Source of the DNA: Candidatus Doudnabacteria bacterium | GTDB lineage: Bacteria > Patescibacteriota > Doudnabacteria > UBA920 | Length of the DNA: 64,000 nucleotides | Assembly: GCA_963837465.1 (NCBI GenBank) | Contig: CAWINB010000004.1 | Location: 650,853 to 714,852 of the forward strand | Direction of reading: 5' to 3' | Shown: one piece after another, positions 1,155 through 58,559 of the stretch | Layout: the number at the start of each line of letters is the position of its first letter | Numbering within the stretch: position 1 is the first letter of the stretch | Made by a program: the position numbers and the translations under genes | Notes under the pieces: model-generated | Databases searched by the model: none | What the model was told of the DNA's origin: nothing | The model's input: only the letters and a program-made list of their open reading frames with translations

Positions 1155-2330
1155 ATGCAAATGCAACCAGGACAAACAGAAAAACTAAAAATCCTTATCC
1201 AGACTTCCGCTATACTTTCGCCTTCTGAACGCGCGGAATGGCTGGCGCTTTTGGATGTGATGAATGATAAGCAGGTTTTTGAATTGGAAAAGATTCTGAC
1301 AGTGGGTCAGCAGTCATCGGTTAAAGCCGCGGTTCCCGATTTCAGAACAAGCGGGGTTAATTTGCCGCCCCCATCGCTTAGGCAAGTGCCGCATCTGAGC
1401 CATATTTTAAATCTTCCCCAGCACTTAAACCCTTCGGGTGATGCGCTTGCCGCTCCTCCAACTGCTGAGCCTCCCAAAGTTGACAACAAGCCCAAATCGC
1501 GTTTTGGCGAAAAATTAAAATCTATTTTTGCCGAAAAAGAACTGCCGCCCGGCCATGGCGATATTTTGGATTTGCCGGCTCCGCCGACCAAGATTGCGAC
1601 TCCGGGTTCCGCCTTGCCTTCGCGGGATACCGGCGGCGTTGCCGTAGAGAAACCGTCGCTACCCCCGGTTGTGCCAAAGCCAAAAACACCCGCGGCGGCG
1701 CTAAACAATATTTCGGAACCTCCGGTTAAGTTAAATCACCCCGATGTTTTAAATACTACTTTACCCCCGGCAGTGCCTTTGGTGTTTTCCAAACATGCTG
1801 ATAATTCCAAGGTTAATCCCGCGGCAGCCGCCATATTGCAAAAAACGCCGGTTAAGCCTGTTCTGCCCGGGCTTGAGCCTCCGTCCGCCATACCCCCCGG
1901 CCAGAAAAATAATTTGCCGCCCAAAGCCCCGGCGCAAAAGCCCGCGCCCGCGCAGCCCGCGCCGCCGGACGTTTCGGCGCAAAAAAAGCAGACAACGCCG
2001 CAGCCGGCCGTTCACCTTCCGGATGCCAAGCTGGAGCTTGATAAGTTAAGCGACACGGCCTTGTTGGATGTAAAAAATTTGCGGATTTTGGATCCGGAAT
2101 TTTTGGTTAAGCAAATTAAAGCGCTGATTGGCCAAAACGGCTACCACGAGGTCATTTTCAACCTTGAAAAAAGCCCGCTTTACTTAAACTATATCAAGAC
2201 GGGCGCGGAAATTTTAAACGGCCGCGCCGATTTTGAAGCCTTAAGCCAAAAGCCGGAAGCGGAAAGTTATTTAAACAGGCAGGAGTTTGAACGGATGACG
2301 GATTTATTAAGGGCGATTCAAGCGGAGTAA
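1155..2330 (+). CDS. hypothetical proline-rich protein with a small folded C-terminal domain
   Basis: 391-aa ORF. The central region is PPxxP/PAPAQ-rich. No motif recognised. Confidence 0.4.
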   Translation: MQMQPGQTEKLKILIQTSAILSPSERAEWLALLDVMNDKQVFELEKILTVGQQSSVKAAVPDFRTSGVNLPPPSLRQVPHLSHILNLPQHLNPSGDALAAPPTAEPPKVDNKPKSRFGEKLKSIFAEKELPPGHGDILDLPAPPTKIATPGSALPSRDTGGVAVEKPSLPPVVPKPKTPAAALNNISEPPVKLNHPDVLNTTLPPAVPLVFSKHADNSKVNPAAAAILQKTPVKPVLPGLEPPSAIPPGQKNNLPPKAPAQKPAPAQPAPPDVSAQKKQTTPQPAVHLPDAKLELDKLSDTALLDVKNLRILDPEFLVKQIKALIGQNGYHEVIFNLEKSPLYLNYIKTGAEILNGRADFEALSQKPEAESYLNRQEFERMTDLLRAIQAE

Positions 2331-2334
2331 AGAT

Positions 2335-2365
2335 AATATCAAATTACAAATTTCAAATGACAAAT
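2335..2365. repeat. left arm of inverted repeat flanking the 4HB gene (CAAATTACAAATTTCAAAT motif)
   Basis: Reverse-complementary to 2731-2755 (ATTTGATATTTGTAATTTGAAATT). The same motif family recurs at 11382-11488. Confidence 0.6.
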
Positions 2366-2725
2366 GAAAAAAAATTTGACCTTGAAGAGCGGACTGCAAA
2401 ATTCGGGGAATCAACAATTGAGTTTGCGGGATTTATTCCACAAGGGCCTATTACCAACCCCTTAATTAACCAATATGTTAAATCCGGCACCTCAATCGGG
2501 GCAAATTATTGTGAAGCTGATTCAGCAGAATCAAGAAAAGACTTTGAGCACAAAATCGGTATTTGTAAAAAAGAGTCCAAAGAAACCCGCTACTGGTTGC
2601 GTATGATACCAAAAGCCAGACCTGAATTAGACCAAAAGGCCGCGATTCTTTGGAAAGAAGCTAATGAGCTATTATTGATATTTTCCGCGATTATCAAAAA
2701 GTCACGTATTAACGGATCAAAGTAA
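2357..2725 (+). CDS. four helix bundle protein (TIGR02436 / 23S rRNA intervening-sequence protein family)
   Basis: 122 aa with motifs IGANYCEA...SRKDFxHKIGICKKESKETRYWL typical of the family. Flanked by inverted repeats. Confidence 0.7.
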   Translation: MTNEKKFDLEERTAKFGESTIEFAGFIPQGPITNPLINQYVKSGTSIGANYCEADSAESRKDFEHKIGICKKESKETRYWLRMIPKARPELDQKAAILWKEANELLLIFSAIIKKSRINGSK

Positions 2726-2730
2726 TTTAG

Positions 2731-2755
2731 AATTTGATATTTGTAATTTGAAATT
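2731..2755. repeat. right arm of inverted repeat flanking the 4HB gene
   Basis: See left arm (2335-2365). Confidence 0.6.
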
Positions 2756-2781
2756 ATTAATTATGTTATAATTAAGTCGAT

Positions 2782-3237
2782 ATGCAATTTCCCGTGCCAC
2801 AATTTACGGATGTTGAGGATAAAATCATCGGCTCGCTTACGATTAAGCAGTTTGGGATTTTGTTTGGCGTCGGCATTGTCATTTTTTTGGGCTACTCTGT
2901 TTCCAAAAGCATTTTGGTGGCGATATTTTTGTTTTTGTTGTTCGGCGTGCCGGGTCTGGGCGTGGCCTTTGCCAAAATTAACGGCCGGCCCATATACAGC
3001 AGCATAGGCAATTTTATTAAGTTTTTTACCAGTCCCAAAGTCCTGATTTTTCACAAGGAAACTGTAAGTTCGTCGGCATCGACTGCCGCTTTTAAAGACG
3101 CCCAAATGGCCGCGGCCGAAGTAAAAGTCCAGGCTCCTGTTCCGGCCGAAAACACCCAAACGCATCTTAAACAAGTGGAGGAGCTCCTGAGAAAAACATC
3201 AAACCAGGAACAGGAAATGGCTAATAAAATCCGTTAG
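2782..3237 (+). CDS. PrgI-family protein (T4SS/conjugation-associated small membrane protein)
   Basis: N-terminus MQFPVPQFTDVEDKIIGSLTIKQF followed by two TM helices. Matches the PrgI family as found next to VirB4 in Gram-positive and CPR T4SS loci. Confidence 0.6.
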   Translation: MQFPVPQFTDVEDKIIGSLTIKQFGILFGVGIVIFLGYSVSKSILVAIFLFLLFGVPGLGVAFAKINGRPIYSSIGNFIKFFTSPKVLIFHKETVSSSASTAAFKDAQMAAAEVKVQAPVPAENTQTHLKQVEELLRKTSNQEQEMANKIR

Positions 3238-3270
3238 AATCAGGAGTTAGGAATTATGAGTTAGGGTCCT

Positions 3271-3317
3271 CCCTAACCCCTAACCCCTAACCCCTAACCC
3301 CTAACCCCTAACCCCCT
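3271..3317. repeat. tandem heptamer repeat (CCCCTAA)x~6.5, telomere-like, preceded by hairpin GTTAGGG-TCCT-CCCTAAC
   Basis: Direct reading of the sequence. Lies in the 83-bp gap between prgI-like and virB4-like genes. Confidence 0.95.
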
Positions 3318-4004
3318 CTGATGAAACTAGAAATGCAAAAGAAAAATAAGGCGCCCGGGAAAACCACCCAGAGTTTTTTGCGCTTAAGCGAAATTAAAAA
3401 CGATACCGTGGTGGTGGACGACGGCACTTTGCGCGCCATTATTTCCGTTTCCAGCACCAATTTTGATTTAAAAAGCCAGGATGAGCAGAATTCCATCATC
3501 TTTAACTTCCAGCGTTTTTTAAACTCCCTGGATTTTTCCATCCAGATTTTAATGCAGAGCCGCAAAATGGAAGTCGGGAGCTATATTGAAAAACTCCACC
3601 GTTTGGCGGAAAAACAGACTAACGAACTGCTTCGGGTGCAGACGGCCGAATATATAGAGTTCATTAGCCGCCTTATTGAGAATGCCAGCATTATGAACAA
3701 AAATTTTTACATTATTGTTCCGCTTGGCGAAAGCATTTTTCCCAACGCCGCGGGTTTGTTTAGCCGGCTTTTGGGCAACGGGAAATCAAAGGAGATTAGC
3801 CAGAAAATAGAGAACTTTGAAAAGGCCAAGGAAAAATTGGACACCAGGGTGGTGGCGTTAATGTCCAATTTGTCGGGAATAGGCATCCGCGGCCAGCGGC
3901 TTAAAACCGAGGAAATTATCCAGCTCTATTACAACTCCTATAATTTTGAAGAAGCTCCGCTGGTGGATCCTGGGCAGCTTAAAGATATAAAAATCTCCGA
4001 ATAG

Positions 4005-4487
4005 TTATCAGGATACTGATATACCGATATGAATACGAATGATACCAATAATACGGATTCTAACAACCAACGCGGTGAATTAATTCATGGGGATTTAACA
4101 TATAAAATTAACAGTGTATTATTTTCTACCCACAATGAACTTGGTCCTTACGTCAGGGAAAGCAATATGAAGATGTGGCAAAAAGAATATTTAAAGAAAA
4201 AGGCATTGGTTATGAACAACAGGTTTCTATCGGCGATTCAGGTAATATAGTAGACGGCATTATTGATAAAAAGGTTCTTATTGAATACAAGGCCAAAAGG
4301 ATATTAACTAAAGAAGATTATTATCAAACCCAAAGATACCTTCAGGAAACCGGTTTAAAACTCGCTATTTTAGTCAATTTTAGAGATAAATATATTAAAC
4401 CCAAACGGATTATAAAAATAGATAACTGGAAATATTAGAATCAGTATTATTGGTATCATCTGTATCTTATCCGTATATTAGCATCAT
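4005..4487. mobile_element. 483-bp insertion in virB4 carrying the GxxExxY gene, bounded by inverted words GATACCAATAATAC (about 4050) and GTATTATTGGTATC (about 4450)
   Basis: virB4 N- and C-terminal parts are contiguous in homologues. The inverted repeats were read directly. Related repeat words also occur at 52840-52958. Confidence 0.5.
4029..4438 (+). pseudogene. GxxExxY-family protein (PD-(D/E)XK-like) gene, frameshifted, inside the insertion that splits virB4
   Basis: ORF 4029-4250 (LTYKINSVLFSTHNELGPY) and ORF 4175-4438 (YEDVAKRIF...IEYKAKRILTKEDYYQTQRYLQETGLKLAILVNF) together reconstruct the family consensus. The frames differ near 4160-4175. Confidence 0.6.
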
Positions 4488-6359
4488 ATGTCCATATTCA
4501 GTAAAATCAACGAAGAAGAATTAAAGAAAAAGAAGGAGCAGGTCAGCGAGGCCGAGACCGAGCGGAACTTGAGTTCTTCTTTGGGGGATCTGGAAAAAAC
4601 CTATCGCGAAGGCTTGACTACCCTAAAGGATATTATCGCGCCTTCGGCCCTGAAGTTTGAAAGTTCCCACTTTGAAATTAACGGCAAGTTCGGCCGCAGT
4701 TTTTTCGTGCTGGCTTATCCGCGCTTTTTGTCCAGCAATTGGCTGTCGTTTATTATCCAGGCCGAGGGAGCTTTGGATTTGTCCATGTTTATTTATCCCA
4801 TTGATTCCGCCGACATCCTGAAAAAACTCAAGAGCAAAGTCGGTGAAATCGGCTCGCAAATGTCCATTAACCAGGAAAAAGGCATGGTGCGCGACCCGAT
4901 GCTGGAAACCGCTTACAAAGATGTGGAAAGTTTGCGCGACAACCTCATGCAGGGAACGGAAAAATATTTCCGTTTCGCGCTTTACTTTACCATTTACGCC
5001 AACGACTTAAAGGAGCTGGACAAGTTTTCCTCCACTTTGGAAAGTTCTTTGGGAGCCAAACTTATAGTAACCAAGCGCGCGCTTTTGCAAACGCAAAACG
5101 GCCTTAACTCCAGTCTGCCTTTGGGGCTGGATGAACTGGACGTGGCCAACAATATGAACACCGGCCCGCTGTCTTCCTGCTTTCCTTTCGTGTCTTCCGA
5201 TTTAACCAGCAATGACGGAATTTTATACGGCATCAACCGCCACAATAACAGCCTGATTTTGTTCGATCGCTTTGCCATGGAAAACGCCAATTCCGTGGTG
5301 TTTGCCAAGTCCGGGGCCGGTAAATCTTACGCCGTCAAACTGGAAGTTTTGCGCTCGCTTATGGTGGGTACGGACGTTATTATAGTGGACCCGGAAAACG
5401 AGTACCAGCATTTGGCTTCGGCCGTGGGCGGGACTTATTTGAGCGTGTCGCTGAATTCGGAATTCGCGCATCAACCCTTTTGATTTGCCCACGGGCCTTG
5501 AGGGCGAGGACAGCGCCGATATTTTACGCAGTTCCGTCATCAATCTTTTGGGCTTGCTTAGTCTGATGCTGGGAAAACTTGACCCTACGGAAGAAGCGCT
5601 TATGGACAAGGCCATTTGGCAAACCTATGCCAAAAAAGACATTACGCCGCAACTGGAAGATTTTAAAGGCATAGAGCCTCCGACCATGAACGATTTGATA
5701 GAAATTTTAAACGGCATGGTCGGCGCCGAAAGCCTGGCCCAGCGCTTGTTTAAGTTTACCCAGGGTACTTTTGGCGGCTTGTTAAACCAGCCGACCAACG
5801 TGGTGCTGAACAATCAACTTGTAGTATTTAGCATTCGCGATCTGGAAGAGGAACTGCGGCCGATTGCCATGTACATTATTTTAAATTATATTTGGAATAT
5901 TGTGCGTTCGGAATTAAAGCGCCGAATCCTGGCCGTGGACGAGGCCTGGATTTTAATGCAGCACGAAGATTCGGCCAGGTTTTTGTTCGGCATTGCCAAG
6001 CGCGCGCGCAAATATTACCTGGGCCTGACCACCATTACCCAGGACGTGGCCGATTTTCTGGCCAGCCCGTACGGCAAGCCTATTGTCACCAACTCATCCA
6101 TCCAAATGCTGCTTAAGCAGAGTCCGGCGGCCATTAACGTTATCGCGGAAACGTTTTTTTTAACCGAGGGCGAAAAATACCTGCTGCTGGAAAGCGAAGT
6201 CGGCGAAGGCATCTTTTTTGCCGGCCTCAAGCACGCCGCGATTAAAATTTACGCCTCCTACGTGGAAGACCAGATTATCACCACGGATCCCAAACAGTTG
6301 CTGGAGATTCAGGAGAGCCAGGAGAAGTTGAATTAAATTCATGGATATGACAGATGCCA

Positions 6360-6393
6360 CTGTTTTCACAGACGCGCGCGTCTGTGAAAACAG
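6360..6393. repeat. 34-nt perfect palindrome CTGTTTTCACAGACGCGC|GCGCGTCTGTGAAAACAG
   Basis: Direct reading. Lies between virB4 and the giant downstream gene. Confidence 0.9.
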
Positions 6394-6399
6394 GGTTGT

Positions 6400-9300
6400 T
6401 TGTCTGTCCGTGAATTATTTTTTATGGCGGAAGAAGATTCACAATCAAATATAGGCGTAGCCGATGGGCAAGAAGATGCTGTTAGGTCTGACAAACAACC
6501 AGCCGCGTCTAAAAAATTTATCCCATTGTCGGGTAAACCGCAAATTGTCAGATTGGGGGAAAGCTTTTTGGGCGGCCGGGTGTTAATTGTTAATGTTACA
6601 GTTGGCGGCGAGCCTCTTAATAATGGCATCAAGGTTTATAAAGATTCCGAGATTATTTTTACCGGGCGGGGTTTGGATAATTTAGATTTTTGGGAAGTCA
6701 GCCGGGAGGGGCGCGACTCTCTGCCTTTTACCCGTTTTAGAACAAAAAGTCCGTCCTTGGCTGTATTCAGCCCGCAAGACGCGCTTGGCGCTCTGGAAAA
6801 CGGCGAGAGTTTCGGTATTTCTTTTTTTTCCAGCAAGTACGGCGGGACGATGCGCACATTATCGGCGCTTTTTACTTACGAAACCGAGGAAGCGGACGAA
6901 GAAGCCGCCCGGAAGGCTAAAGCCGCGCGGGCGGCGGCGGAGGCGGCGCAGTCGGAGGGCGGAGGCGGAACTTTGGGTATTTCCCAGTTGATTGATGAAA
7001 GCATTGGCGGGGTGGCTAACGCGGTTGGGAGGGGGTTGCGGAGTTCGGCGAGGTCGGCGGTTTCCGGGACCGCAGGGGCTTACGCTGCCGGTTCTCAAAC
7101 TGTCAGCCAAAAATCAACCACGGAAAGTGCCGGAGGTGGAGGGTATGATGAGGAGACAGCCCAAGTCTCAACCGTAAACGTTCCTTCATCTACCATTGAA
7201 GCTTCTTCGGCGGGCACGCGGGTTGTAAGCCAGTCAGGAACTGTGGGCGGGTCACGCGGCGCGGAGATTACTTCTTCGGGTACGGTTTCAGGGTCGGGTG
7301 GCGGTACAATTTCTTCTTCGGGTACGGTTGAACCGCGAACTCGGGTAGGTGCAACTGCCCAGGTTAGTTCAGCGTCCGGCGGCGGACAAACTTTTGGCGG
7401 CGGGACTGTATCTGCCGGTGGTACGGCATCGGCTCAGGCATTTGTGGAAGCCAGGGTTTCGGGATCAGCTTCGGGACAAGCTTCCGGCGGCGGGCAAGTA
7501 TCGGCTTCTGTTTCAGGCGGGGGCGGAGTTTCATCCGGCGGCGGCGGAAATATTTCCGGACAGGCTTCGGTTCAAAGCGGCGGATCCCAAGCCGCATCGG
7601 CGCGGCCGGTTTCGCAAGGTCTCCAGGGAGGGGGAATATCGTCCGGGCGTCAACAGACAGCGCAGGCTCAGTCAGCCGGACAAAACGCCGGCCAGCAGGC
7701 ACAGACAGTGTCTCAAAATCAGGGCGGGCGGGCAGGATCAACAATTTCCGGCACAGCGCAAACAGCCGTTCCTTCTTTTTCATCAGGGACAAACTTAAAG
7801 ACACAAATAGGTGGCGCGGGCGCAACTTCTCCGGCTGTGCCTAAAAGCCGACCTTTGGCATCGGGAGCACCAGCCACGCCTTTGGGTAGTTTACCGCAAA
7901 ATTTTTCGGGTGCCTCGGGAACTTTTCAGCCCGGTTTAAATTTAGGCGCCAGCACACCCGTGGATGGCATCGCGGTAAACCCTCCCGCGGGCATGGAAGG
8001 CACTTTGAATAAGTTTTTTGAAAACCAGTCGGCTTTGGGCAGGTTAGATTTGGGGCCTGCCGAGAATCAAAATCATGAAATTCAGGGTCAGGAAAGTTCT
8101 TTGCCGGACGGGGAGAATGTAACAGAATCATCTGGATCTCCTGCCTCCGATGGCCAGCCGGAAATTTCAGGCTCCCCGGAAACCGAGCCGGATGTCGCGC
8201 CGCCTTTGTCCGAAGCGGGACTTCCGGGCGAAGGCGCGGGTGGCGAAGGTCAGGGTGGTCAGGAAGGCGCGGTCGATTCGGGGGATTCGGGGTCAGGAGC
8301 TCAATCAGGAAATTCGGAGCCGGGAGCGAAAGGGGGATTGAATGGTCAAACAGAAGGCGGCCAGGGAGGCCCGCCGGATAAAAATGCTCCGACCGGAACA
8401 AAGCCGCCGGGGCAAAATCCCGAAGCGACCGGGGCGCCTGACGCTGCCGTTCCGGGACAGCAGCCCGCCGCGGAGGGAGCCGCTCCGGATTCGGCCGAAG
8501 CAGACGCTTTAGCAGGACCTGAAGCAGACGGGGAAGCGGGAGCTGGCGCGGGGCCCGAGGGAGCCGCCGCGGCAGGGGCCGCGCTTTCCGGCGGCGGGCT
8601 TGATGCCGCCGCCGCGTTGGTCAACACGGAAGTAAATAGTCTTCTCACTGCCGCGGCTTTATGGGTCTGGGGATCGGGGATAGTCAGCTGCGGTTTTACC
8701 ATTGTGCTGGGGGCGCTAGTTGGGGATTTTCTCGTGCTGATGAAGAAGCGGTTGGCCAAAAGGGCTGTCAGCGCGCTTTCGGTAACCAGTTTAGGCGCTG
8801 GGATGAAACTGGCTTCATTTTCAAATGACCAACTGGCGGAAAAAATTAAGTTTAATCTGCCGGTTAAGGCCAATATCGCGGCGATGAACGCGGTAGTGGC
8901 AGTTATGATTTTTGGGGCAATATTTTTTTTCGGTGTGGTGTTATACGCCGGCTGTACCTGGCCGTTGGGCCAGTTCATCAGTTCGGCAACCAATTTTAAA
9001 GCCTCCATTATCGGCGGAATGGGTTATTCCAATGTTTGCCAGGATTTTTTATCGTTCCCCGCCGGACTCAGCGGCGCGGCGCAGGGAGCGACTACTGCCG
9101 GACCGGGTGCGCCATCTCCGAGTACTTCGTCTTCCAGGACTTGCAATGTTTTACCTTCCGGCAATGCCAGCGTGGCGCAATTATCTACTACCTGCTTTGG
9201 CGCTAACGCCTACACCGCCGCTGTTGTTGCGGCGCACGAAAGCGGCGGTACTCCGGGTATTGCCAGCGGTACGGATTATTGCCGTAATCCGGATGGTAGT

Positions 9301-10189: not shown

Positions 10190-11347
10190 ATGAATAAAAG
10201 AGCTATTGCCATTTTAGGCGTTATTTTTCTTCTTATTGTGGGCACTTTGGGTTTTTTGATTTACGCCAAATATTCGGGCGGCAAAGCAAAAACACCGGCT
10301 GCGCCGTCTTTATCCCAAACCGCTACTTCCACCAGCACGCCTAATTCAACTGCTTCCACCACACCGCCATCAACAAGTCAGGGCATCGGGCAACTGACAA
10401 CCGACCAGGTGGTTTCCCCCGCTTTGTTTTTTAACGACAGCGGCATAACTTATTTTGACAATCAGGGCAATTTGTACCAGTCAACCCTGCAAACCAGCAA
10501 CGGCCAGCTTGAGTTAACCGATAAAAAACAGCTGGATATTCCGGTTAAGGCCAACATTACCAAAATTTTATGGCCGCAAAAAGGCAACGATTTTATAGCG
10601 GAAATTACCGACCCGGCGACCCAAAAAATAAGCTGGAGTTATTTTAACAGCAACAGCGGGGCTTACACGGACTTGCCGCCTCAGGTTGAAAGCGTGGATT
10701 GGATGCCCGACGGAACCCGGATAGCCTACGTTTGGCTGGCTAACGGTAAAGCCAGTTTGAGCATGGGCAATCCCGACGCTACCAGCTACAAAACCCTGGC
10801 TCCCATGTGGGAAACAGACGACACTTTGAGCGTCTCCCCCGACGGCTCGCAGATTTTGTATTACGAAACCAACAATACGGGTTTGACCAACGCCATTAAC
10901 TCCGTCAGCATAGACGGCAAGGTTTGGAAAGGCTTGGTTAAAAGCGGCCAGAATTTTGGGGTTTTGTGGAGCCCGGACGGACAAAAATTTTTGTTTGGCA
11001 AAAAAGATCCGGCCACGCTGCAGTACCAGTTGTGGTATTACAACTTAACTTCCGGCGAAACGGAAAATCTCGGCCTGTTTACCACCGTGGATAAAGCAGT
11101 ATGGGCCGGCGACAGCAATATTATTTACGCCGCCGTGCCCAATTCAACTTCTCCGGCCCAGGGTAGTTTAACCAGCGATAGTTTTTACAGCCTTAACACT
11201 TCCACTTTGGCCAAGCAGCAGTACGGCGTTGGCGTAACTACGGCCATTGACGGCCAGGATTTGTTCTTAAACTCCAGCGGCAACGACTTATTTTTTAAGA
11301 ACGCGCAGGATGGGGGCCTTTACTATCTTGATTTAAGCCAGCAGTAG
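10190..11347 (+). CDS. membrane-anchored PD40/TolB-like beta-propeller repeat protein
   Basis: N-terminal TM. Repeats DWMPDGTRIAY, SVSPDGSQILYY and WSPDGQKFLF. An extended -10 (TGCTATAAT) lies about 40 bp upstream. Confidence 0.5.
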   Translation: MNKRAIAILGVIFLLIVGTLGFLIYAKYSGGKAKTPAAPSLSQTATSTSTPNSTASTTPPSTSQGIGQLTTDQVVSPALFFNDSGITYFDNQGNLYQSTLQTSNGQLELTDKKQLDIPVKANITKILWPQKGNDFIAEITDPATQKISWSYFNSNSGAYTDLPPQVESVDWMPDGTRIAYVWLANGKASLSMGNPDATSYKTLAPMWETDDTLSVSPDGSQILYYETNNTGLTNAINSVSIDGKVWKGLVKSGQNFGVLWSPDGQKFLFGKKDPATLQYQLWYYNLTSGETENLGLFTTVDKAVWAGDSNIIYAAVPNSTSPAQGSLTSDSFYSLNTSTLAKQQYGVGVTTAIDGQDLFLNSSGNDLFFKNAQDGGLYYLDLSQQ

Positions 11348-11381: not shown

Positions 11382-11488
11382 AATTTCAAATTTCCAATTA
11401 CAAATTTCAAATTAATGCCGAGTACCCAATTTTGAATTTGATTGTTGGGGTTTGGTTTGAAATTTGATATTTGCAATTTGGAATTTTT
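11382..11488. repeat. solo copy of the CAAATTTCAAAT inverted-repeat element (no internal gene)
   Basis: Arms AATTTCAAATTTCCAATTACAAATTTCAAATT and TTTGAAATTTGATATTTGCAATTTGGAATT are inverted. Same family as the flanks of the 4HB gene at 2357. Confidence 0.6.
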
Positions 11489-15552: not shown

Positions 15553-15564
15553 TTAATATTCCAC

Positions 15565-15670
15565 AGATCACGGATAAGCACAGATTCACAGATTGATTAT
15601 CCGCTTAGTAGTATTGTTGGAAGAATTTAAATTATCAGATAAATAATCTGCGTATCTGTGTCAATCTGTG
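15565..15670. repeat. about 40-bp imperfect inverted repeat (CCACAGATCAC...CACAGATTCACAGATTGA / TCTGTGTCAATCTGTGATCTGTGG)
   Basis: Direct reading. Lies between tRNA-Arg and the downstream membrane-protein gene. Confidence 0.7.
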
Positions 15671-15681
15671 ATCTGTGGACA

Positions 15682-25885: not shown

Positions 25886-25886
25886 T

Positions 25887-25923
25887 GGGGGTAGGGTATA
25901 GGGGCTAGGGGGTTAGGGGTTAG
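25887..25923. repeat. G-rich flank GGGGGTAGGGTATAGGGGCTAGGGGGTTAGGGGTTAG (GGGGTTA units)
   Basis: Inverted complement of the C-rich flank 26308-26343 on the other side of the 4HB gene. Has at least 4 G-tracts. Confidence 0.85.
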
Positions 25924-25931
25924 AAAAGCAC

Positions 25932-26303
25932 CTAATTGATTGTAGTTGAGCGAAGTTTTTTGATTAGCGCTAGTAGCATTTTTTGTACTTGCAGAAGTAA
26001 TGACTTAGCGATCAAATAATCAAAATTCGGATACAATTTTTCCATCAGTAATATTTGTGTTTCAAGTTCTGCCGTCGATCCAAAAGCTATGCCCAAAAAT
26101 TGAATGAATTCTTTGGTATGGTTCCTCGCGTGGCCTTCTGCTATGTTGGAAGGTATAGAGATGGCAGCTCTTTGTGTTTGTGAACAAAGGCCGTAAAGTT
26201 CGTGTTTAGGAAATTGGCGGGTAATTTTATATATTTCTAATACTAAATCATTAGATTTTTGCCAAACAATTAAGTCTTTGTAGCTTAAGATCTGGTTTTG
26301 CAT
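25932..26303 (-). CDS. four helix bundle protein (TIGR02436 / 23S rRNA IVS protein family), second copy
   Basis: Motifs DLIVWQKS...FPKHELYGLCSQTQRAAISIPSNIAEGHAR...GSTAELETQ, canonical for the family. Confidence 0.8.
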   Translation of the reverse strand: MQNQILSYKDLIVWQKSNDLVLEIYKITRQFPKHELYGLCSQTQRAAISIPSNIAEGHARNHTKEFIQFLGIAFGSTAELETQILLMEKLYPNFDYLIAKSLLLQVQKMLLALIKKLRSTTIN

Positions 26304-26307
26304 ACTA

Positions 26308-26343
26308 TTCCCTAATCTCTATTCCCTAGCCCCTACCATTAGA
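26308..26343. repeat. C-rich flank ATTCCCTAATCTCTATTCCCTAGCCCCTACCATTAG
   Basis: Shares the core AGGGGCTAGGG/CCCTAGCCCCT in inverted orientation with 25887-25923. Confidence 0.8.
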
Positions 26344-52839: not shown

Positions 52840-52958
52840 TTAATATCATACGGATATACGGATTTAAATACTAATTATACGGATAATCCTGATGCTAAAA
52901 ACGTCAGTATTCGTATTATCGGCATCATCCGTATGTATCAGTATATCGGCATCGTACT

Positions 52959-57154: not shown

Positions 57155-57269
57155 GCGCGCCCCTCAAGGGCAACCCTCGCGCGGAGGCTTTATATAATTT
57201 AATTATGGCCATATGATTAATTTACTACAAACCTAAACCGGGCGGCGCGAGGGTTGCCCTTGAGGGGCT
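57155..57269. repeat. perfect 24-bp inverted repeat GCCCCTCAAGGGCAACCCTCGCGC separated by 63 nt of AT-rich loop
   Basis: Direct reading. Confidence 0.9.
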
Positions 57270-58513: not shown

Positions 58514-58559
58514 GGTTTCGTGTGCGCTAGCGTACTAGTACGCTAGCGCACACGAAACC
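58514..58559. repeat. 46-bp perfect palindrome GGTTTCGTGTGCGCTAGCGTAC|TA|GTACGCTAGCGCACACGAAACC (copy 3 of the palindromic element)
   Basis: Direct reading. Contains NheI- and SpeI-type hexamers. Related copies at 36744-36787 and 19122-19165. Confidence 0.9.

Follow-up and report, generated by a model that had tools for sequence, protein, structure and literature searches.

The intervening sequences (IVSs) in the rRNA genes of Coxiella burnetii, Leptospira and Salmonella, together with the non-intron rRNA inserts of bacteria from the candidate phyla radiation (CPR), are the nearest described analogue of the element reported here. The IVS of Coxiella is 428 nt long, holds a decaying open reading frame (ORF) in its loop and heptamer repeats in its stem, has a GC content under the genome average and is excised by RNase III (PMC4990558). 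Inserts in CPR rRNA carry 23S_rRNA_IVP and GIY-YIG genes at stem-loops (PMC11270868). Our subject is a 474-bp cassette, enclosed by inverted repeats, that lies between a TrsD-like gene and the gene for the VirB4 ATPase core in a 64,000-nt stretch of DNA from a Candidatus Doudnabacteria bacterium (GCA_963837465.1, CAWINB010000004.1:650,853-714,852, forward strand). The whole stretch is referred to below as the window, and positions are counted from its first nucleotide (Table 1). The cassette occupies nearly all of the 483-bp spacer between the two genes, and we consider it likely, the mechanism proposed below included, that this insert is a small selfish cassette sitting in the junction of two genes found apart in each of the relatives examined.

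The resemblance to rRNA IVSs extends to size (~430-490 bp), to terminal inverted repeats that give a long stem and to a small ORF in the loop, and an inverted-repeat stem around a small ORF was found in the window element as well. The ORF families known from IVSs, the 23S_rRNA_IVP four-helix bundle and GIY-YIG, are those that occupy the TrsD-VirB4 and PrgI-TrsD junctions in relatives of this locus. Short tandem words make up the stem in both cases (GACAGAT heptamers in the Coxiella IVS, 7-nt arrays here), and both have a GC content under the genome average, a sporadic distribution and a tendency of the ORF to decay. Unlike an IVS, the element lies between protein-coding genes of an mRNA operon and outside any rRNA helix, with no Rfam rRNA match nearby; its ends abut stop and start codons, and its cargo is a GxxExxY nuclease of the PD-(D/E)XK type. 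The element is IVS-like without being an IVS.

A further point of reference is provided by the free-standing homing endonuclease genes of T4-like phages, the seg and mob genes of "intronless homing", among which mobE splits nrdA of phage Aeh1 into two genes, the genes-in-pieces arrangement that the preliminary description had envisaged for virB4. As in those phages, a small nuclease gene lies between conserved genes, is co-oriented with them, is polymorphic for presence and absence and is more conserved than its flanks; these last two properties were found for the family of elements and not for the window copy. Unlike the phage case, the flanking genes here were separate beforehand, and the long conserved terminal inverted repeats and cargo-less miniatures that are present here are absent from phage homing endonuclease genes. 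REPIN/RAYT elements and miniature inverted-repeat transposable elements (MITEs) are similar in that hairpin inverted repeats are dispersed intergenically and a full version with a small gene is outnumbered by short derivatives. Terminal inverted repeats of the kind expected of a transposon are indeed conserved here (17-nt termini, 35-49 elements), but there is neither a recognisable transposase, be it HUH/Y1 (RAYT) or DDE, nor a visible target-site duplication; the cargo families are different ones, and the elements insert at operon junctions in an orientation that follows transcription.

The TrsD-VirB4 junction

A preliminary description of this DNA had read the TrsD-like ORF and the VirB4 core as two parts of one virB4 gene, contiguous in homologues and split here by an insertion. 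We joined the N-terminal fragment to the repaired core, searched 5.8 billion proteins with this query and evaluated the 120 best homologues. At 83-93% identity, and with the best hits annotated as Candidatus Doudnabacteria, these cover the core alone; the N-terminal domain is present in none of the 120. Most of them (104) are 613-617 aa long and start with MS(I/L)F(G/S)K, as does the ORF from ATG 4488, and the longer ones (650-807 aa) owe their length to Pro/Glu-rich linker expansions and not to fusion. In all 60 related loci, the TrsD-like gene has its own stop before the core gene begins. Three classes of gap separate the two genes across these loci: 2-9 nt, hairpins of 70-280 nt, and 430-525 nt with a single ORF of 119-139 aa. 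The short gap, with no insert, is found in five genomes (L031, L033, L034, L008 and L042). Single polypeptides that hold both parts are confined to remote VirB4 families, such as those of the CD1110 type, so that the contiguity claimed earlier is true of those families and false of every close homologue. The comparative data show instead that VirB4 is naturally encoded as two genes at this point.

This layout is already the published norm in Patescibacteria, and VirB4 is not split by the element. In a survey of these bacteria, TrsD was the most abundant component of the type IV secretion system (T4SS), with 2,272 stand-alone homologues, 1,664 of which lie beside virB4 (PMC12102498). The window genes resemble the TrsD and TrsE (VirB4) pair of the staphylococcal pGO1/pSK41-type and Patescibacteria T4SSs in that a TrsD-matching gene is followed immediately downstream by a separate core, and differ from the pair elsewhere in that the junction holds a cassette and the core has a possible frameshift. 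The TrsD-like gene is a separate ORF within the expected ~200-250 aa, is homologous to the VirB4 N-terminus and adjoins virB4, as is expected of a TrsD. It covers the N-terminal portion of VirB4 models only (NF045971, 9-136 of 752; NF045975, 93-233), matches the TrsD model NF041427 at E = 2.3e-7, which is under that model's curated cut-off, and has, as do its orthologues in related loci, a precomputed assignment to PF26593 (TraC-like). The remaining VirB4 is covered by the ORF at 4488-5483 (NF045971 176-475, 1.6e-55) and the ORF at 5485-6336 (488-728, 2.8e-41). Family models and the Walker A (GAGKS, 5313-5327) and Walker B (VDEAW, 5935-5949) motifs identify this core gene as a VirB4/TrsE-type T4SS ATPase, although its reading frame is not intact.

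An intron-like nature of the insert, which had also been suggested, was rejected. An Rfam scan of 2200-6500 (E <= 1) returned chance stem-loops only and no intron, rRNA or other RNA family. The insert has many stop codons in the frame shared by the two flanking ORFs, both of which retain their own stop and start, and the ends of the element fall outside each ORF. Together with the separateness of the flanking genes in homologues, these results leave the insert without the attributes of a group I intron, a group II intron or an intein. A split or fused VirB4 was likewise rejected on the absence of the N-terminal part from the 120 best hits.

The core gene of the window carries an extra A at 5461/5462 (GAT to GAAT, creating GAATTCGGAATTCG; window 5453-5466), at a site that reads LNS-x-SRINPFDL in thirteen homologues. 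A Logan contig (L064) terminates exactly at 5463, by this extra A, which suggests a variant bubble or an error over a settled pseudogene. Look-ups of neighbouring proteins for another contig spanning 5461/5462 found only a short contig of the same run, or none. The extra A may thus be a population variant or an error and not the mark of a true pseudogene, which would agree with a report that this T4SS is essential (PMC12102498). Two further observations concern the core gene in relatives. It is multiply frameshifted in a related metagenome-assembled genome (L022), and in L019, L021, L032, P0093, P0104, P0111 and P0113 the conserved MSLFGP start is followed by a GC-rich, low-complexity expansion of 75-500 aa rich in Pro, Glu and Gln, another route to lengthening the same junction region.

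Anatomy, relatives and cargo of the cassette

The edges of the element lie 7 nt from the gene on its left and 2 nt from the gene on its right, and its excision leaves a 9-nt spacer, equal in length to the empty junction of L008. The GC content of the spacer is 0.31, against 0.47 for the window. The inverted words that the preliminary description had placed at the bounds of the insert are exact 14-mers, GATACCAATAATAC (4041-4054) and GTATTATTGGTATC (4444-4457), and they form part of longer terminal inverted repeats that hold on careful alignment. The arms are ~50 nt each, are composed of short repeated words and align as 4033-4063/4435-4465 (31 nt, 90%) and 4012-4032/4465-4485 (21 nt, 81%). When up to two mismatches are allowed, the 14-mer pattern has four matches in the window against 0.29 expected; two are exact, and those at 10865-10878 and 52913-52926 have two mismatches each. 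In the minimum free energy fold, 4012-4069 is paired with 4427-4485 as the closing stem, and the insert folds at -99 kcal/mol (z = -3.3), a value equalled by none of 100 shuffles. The element has one ORF, co-oriented with the host operon and promoter-less; a promoter and terminator scan of the insert gave only AT-rich consensus noise.

A metagenome scan with the repaired cargo protein recovered relatives at 80 loci, with 40-73% identity. GxxExxY genes had earlier been proposed as the cargo of a family of small mobile elements, and this is borne out by 49 elements, 433-491 nt long, with the common termini 5'-GAT(A/G)CNNATATACNNATG ... GTATATNNG(T/C)ATC-3'. The cargo ATG has a fixed position within the left repeat across the family. 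The terminal 17 nt are conserved family-wide, with covariation at positions 4, 7 and 15. For most loci that could be tested, the two sides of the ORF show a complementarity well beyond that of shuffled controls. In a set of 57 distinct elements, co-orientation holds for 42 of 49 upstream and 47 of 50 downstream neighbours; the distance from the upstream stop to the left end is ~3 nt and that from the right end to the downstream start ~6 nt (medians). T4SS genes are neighbours at only ~8 of the 80 loci; the neighbours, a variety of housekeeping genes among them, match 124 Pfam families, including ribosomal proteins S9 and L11, NusG, GAPDH/PGK and SecDF. Of the cargo homologues, the two nearest (75-77%) have Nramp and infC as neighbours in one case and gap and pgk in the other. 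No target-site duplication was recognisable in 49 flank pairs, and no transposase was found in any locus examined. The glycolytic operon of another CPR genome (L148; also L149 and L150) holds two co-oriented cassettes, one at 462-758 with a GIY-YIG gene between transketolase and pfkB, and one at 3001-3411 with the closest intact relative of the window GxxExxY gene (77%) between gap and pgk.

Some copies of the element, at 94-99% identity, are far more alike than their flanks, at 70-74%, and this comparison indicates that the family moves horizontally. The elements of L108 and L117 are 98.6% identical over 440 nt, against 70.7% for the orthologous flanks; those of L095, L097, L100 and L112 are 89-94% identical with flanks at 70-74%, and some elements are 86-87% identical despite unrelated flanks. 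Both the TrsD-VirB4 and the PrgI-TrsD junctions vary among close relatives, being empty, filled by a hairpin of 70-280 nt or filled by a cassette of 430-570 nt. Nearly all spacers longer than 60 nt at these two junctions fold end-to-end. The ORFs found there in relatives encode 23S_rRNA_IVP four-helix bundles (10), PDDEXK_3 proteins (9) and a GIY-YIG protein (1). In L094, a single T4SS operon has two GxxExxY cassettes, 82% identical to each other, at 619-998 and 2501-2905; one is upstream of PrgI and frameshifted, and the other is at the TrsD-VirB4 junction.

The hairpins that lack cargo are, to judge by their arms, internal-deletion derivatives of such cassettes. Both arms of the 202-nt hairpin of L003 are common with the L006 cassette, and a remnant of the 3' end of the ORF is retained; the same arm family is found at the other T4SS junction in L005 and L011. 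A miniature of this kind occurs in the window upstream of nusG, where the preliminary description had reported similar repeat words at 52840-52958. These words belong to a 107-nt hairpin (-29.8 kcal/mol, z = -2.4) whose right arm aligns with that of the cassette, and full elements in other places repeatedly have NusG as a neighbour.

The cargo is a GxxExxY-family PD-(D/E)XK nuclease with a Cas4/RecB-like fold. As had been noted before, its gene is frameshifted in the window: it is spread over ORFs in two frames (4029-4250 and 4175-4438), and alignment to three relatives places the lesion in the loss of one A from the run at 4159-4161. After repair, the product reaches 56.8 bits against TIGR04256 (cut-off 35), over the full model and with the D...ExK motif, so that membership in the GxxExxY/PDDEXK_3 family is clear while the gene itself is not intact. 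Residues G39, E44, Y47, D76, E86 and K88 are invariant in 41 members of the cargo family. In the window copy, three residues with 90-98% conservation are changed (G29S, R64Q and E65Q). A Logan contig, from run ERR10755945, matches 3286-5463 at 100% identity, a span that takes in the full element and the frameshift of its cargo gene. This contig was probably built from the same reads as the window assembly; since it was assembled separately, the deletion in the cargo gene is no assembler error. The window copy is old and decaying, a passive remnant, because its nuclease gene is frameshifted and conserved residues have been lost. Almost nothing has been published on GxxExxY proteins, and no relative with a solved structure (PDB) was found by sequence. 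Cargo of a defence system was rejected, as a PADLOC search of the GxxExxY, four-helix-bundle and GIY-YIG proteins gave no match.

Proposed mechanism and competing explanations

In the mechanism that we favour, the cargo would be expressed by read-through transcription from the host operon. By analogy with free-standing homing endonucleases, the GxxExxY nuclease may promote spread by cleaving empty or related sites, into which the element would be copied by recombinational repair, and ectopic insertion would occur occasionally alongside such copying. In the transcript, pairing of the repeats would bring the upstream stop and the downstream start to within ~9 nt of one another again. This pairing may keep translation coupled, or may offer an RNase III site as in rRNA IVSs, and by either route the element would be tolerated and harmless in essential operons.

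Several results weigh against this selfish-cassette mechanism. Neither a target site nor a target-site duplication can be defined from the 49 elements. The four-helix-bundle cassettes have the same anatomy without a nuclease, so that the cargo nuclease may not be the mobility enzyme, which could be encoded elsewhere. To our knowledge, no activity has been assigned to a GxxExxY protein and no family member has been characterised. Complementarity of the arms is only ~77%, and the mismatches are regularly spaced; G.U-compatible mismatches on the transcribed strand number 52 and A.C mismatches 83, which is no G.U excess, and arm positions 6 and 14 are systematically unpaired. These last two results leave selection on an RNA stem as no more than a possibility, and the repeats could be simply a pair of sites in DNA to which protein binds. 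Selection at the RNA level was accordingly set aside, as the asymmetry between G.U and A.C lends it no support and partial covariation does not separate a hairpin from paired protein-binding sites. A motif search found no RNase III gene within the 64-kb window, a result that is uninformative for the whole genome. Finally, the window copy is 71-72% identical to every relative, whereas its flanks are 75-80% identical to those of L022, and hence it gives no direct sign of recent movement.

The arms and the cargo bear on two other explanations of the family. The repeats might be non-autonomous, MITE-like ends mobilised by an unlinked transposase or recombinase, with the cargo genes as passengers (toxin, defence or nucleic-acid binding). 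Such passengers would suit the finding of three unrelated cargo families with the same anatomy at the same junctions, one of which, the four-helix bundle, has no nuclease fold, as well as the abundance of cargo-less miniatures and the presence of the same outer arms around different cargo in L001 and L003. The arms nevertheless track the cargo subfamily: this GxxExxY clade has arms of the GATAC type, and one four-helix-bundle clade has arms of the GAATTATGAAT type. A cargo protein that recognises the ends of its own element would give such a pattern. The fixed spot of the cargo start codon in the left repeat, the absence of a transposase nearby in any locus and the lack of a PADLOC defence match also argue against passengers, and we regard this explanation as unlikely. 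We find it more improbable still that the hairpins are vertically inherited host regulatory devices, such as mRNA stabilisers of the repetitive extragenic palindromic (REP) kind or RNase III sites, with small ORFs that are incidental or domesticated. That account would explain why an end-to-end stem is found in nearly every spacer of more than 60 nt at both junctions, why placement is strictly co-directional and exact at stop/start junctions, and why some stem positions covary. It is at odds with the differences in presence, absence and cargo type between close relatives, some of whose junctions are only 2-9 nt long, with an element identity well above that of the flanks, with a GC content below that of the host, with the lack of a G.U bias on the transcribed strand and with the decay of the cargo genes.

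The remaining two explanations concern the window locus itself. A once-contiguous virB4 split by an intron-like element, its function regained by splicing or read-through, is suggested by the remote VirB4 families in which one polypeptide holds both parts, by the model NF045971, which spans both fragments, and by an insert of 483 bp, a multiple of 3, that leaves both fragments in the same frame. The two genes are separate in 120 of 120 protein homologues and 60 of 60 loci, including those with gaps of 2-9 nt and no insert; TrsD is a recognised stand-alone component; and the shared frame is rich in stops, no Rfam intron or RNA family is present, and the element ends beyond both ORFs. We hold a split virB4 to be highly improbable, and on the compared sequences it is already refuted. 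A chimeric join or an error-ridden region could likewise have produced an apparent insert and frameshifts, and the two single-A indels within 1.3 kb, the end of L064 exactly at the extra A of VirB4 and the multiply frameshifted core of L022 are what such an artefact might leave behind. With the identical Logan contig described above and homologous elements at this and other junctions in dozens of other genomes, we assign an assembly or sequencing artefact a negligible probability. A selfish cassette between two genes that were separate beforehand remains our preferred account.

Genomic context and implications

The segment studied belongs to an operon, conserved and resembling those for type IV secretion, in a Patescibacteria (Doudnabacteria-like) genome. 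Its + strand genes are listed in order in Table 1. Directly 3' of the VirB4 core stop, a GC-rich hairpin of 15 pairs with a T-rich tail (6349-6404; 6360-6393 in the terminator scan) is the sole notable terminator-like site in the operon segment.

Table 1. Features of the operon segment, of the cassette and of a related miniature (positions in the window)
Feature	Position	Strand	Remarks
Four-helix-bundle gene	2357-2725	+	First in the gene order
PrgI/VirB3-like gene	2782-3237	+	Pfam PF12666 PrgI, E = 1.9e-10; synteny in 50+ related loci; opens the segment studied
TrsD-like gene, 227 aa	3321-4004	+	Own TAG stop; NF041427 and N-terminal parts of VirB4 models
Spacer, 483 bp	4005-4487		Between the TrsD-like and VirB4 core genes
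Element, 474-bp cassette within inverted repeats	4012-4485	+	Family-consensus termini GATACTGATATACCGATATG ... GTATATTAGCATC; fills the TrsD-VirB4 junction
Left terminal inverted repeat	4012-4063	+	ATACNNAT-type words; holds the cargo start codon (4029); encodes MNTNDTNNTDSNN
GxxExxY / PD-(D/E)XK nuclease pseudogene	4029-4438	+	Pfam PDDEXK_3 (PF13366) and TIGR04256 on the 3' part
Right terminal inverted repeat	4435-4485	+	Begins at the cargo stop codon; ends 2 nt short of the VirB4 core ATG
VirB4 ATPase core gene, 615 aa once repaired	4488-6336	+	+1 frameshift, ORFs 4488-5483 and 5485-6336; NF045971 176-728
Gene for a 1063-aa protein		+	Follows the VirB4 core gene
Cargo-less miniature of the same inverted-repeat family, 107 nt	52847-52953	+	Right arm aligns with the cassette right arm; ends 5 nt before the nusG start

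Other cassettes and hairpins were observed in the window. The four-helix-bundle gene that heads the gene order (TIGR02436 / 23S_rRNA_IVP, GC 0.385) lies in a second cassette of the same anatomy at 2331-2781, with a 33-nt inverted repeat (2333-2365 / 2725-2757) of AATTTCA-type words and the start codon within the left arm. A third cassette, at 25886-26338 on the - strand between htpX-like and lemA-like genes, holds the four-helix-bundle gene 25932-26303 (TIGR02436, 4e-34) and has an inverted repeat (25890-25908 / 26319-26337) of TAGGG/CCCTA words. The PrgI-TrsD spacer of the window (3233-3320) is a hairpin in which GTTAGG(A/G) words face a perfect array of 6.4 CCCTAAC heptamers (3271-3315), giving it a telomere-like look; it is probably a cargo-less miniature of a CCCTA-word cassette family. 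Long intergenic hairpins that lack cargo are found just upstream of radA (11382-11486), where 4.6 copies of AATTTCA face 4.4 copies of TTTGAAA, and at 15560-15679, with CACAGAT/ACGGAT words and 59-nt arms. The 17-mer AATTACAAATTTCAAAT occurs both in the hairpin upstream of radA and in the cassette arms at 2331-2781. Unlike the AT-rich cassette arms, two further features are GC-rich: a 24-nt perfect inverted repeat with its halves 62 nt apart (57159-57268) and a 25-nt perfect overlapping palindrome (58514-58559).

The local copy is an ordinary, decaying instance in an intergenic junction, and the family is of more interest than the supposed split of VirB4 that first drew attention to it. These tiny mobile elements of ultra-small (CPR) bacteria form a family that is barely described. 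In the reduced genomes of CPR bacteria, its members are placed with precision between the genes of operons that are essential and highly expressed, among them those of the T4SS, ribosomal proteins, nusG, infC and glycolysis. Annotators of CPR genomes will often meet such inserts, or the hairpins left by their decay, between genes, and should not take them for gene disruptions. The family also supplies a candidate homing-type nuclease (GxxExxY) and a defined 17-nt terminal motif, and through it the rRNA IVSs, long unexplained, and the "S23p" ORFs they hold are linked with a wider range of very small cassettes. A wider reading, which we put forward tentatively and with some doubt, is that, in CPR bacteria, one unrecognised class of ~0.45-kb inverted-repeat cassettes carries three kinds of cargo gene: GxxExxY, four-helix-bundle ("23S rRNA IVS protein") and small GIY-YIG. 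This class would colonise rRNA helices, as the classic IVSs, and likewise the stop/start junctions of essential operons, its paired ends would restore the proximity of stop and start or allow excision by RNase III, and the GxxExxY proteins would make up a new endonuclease family, homing or structure-specific, each member recognising its own repeats. If this is true, rRNA IVSs would gain a mechanism as well as a broader natural history.

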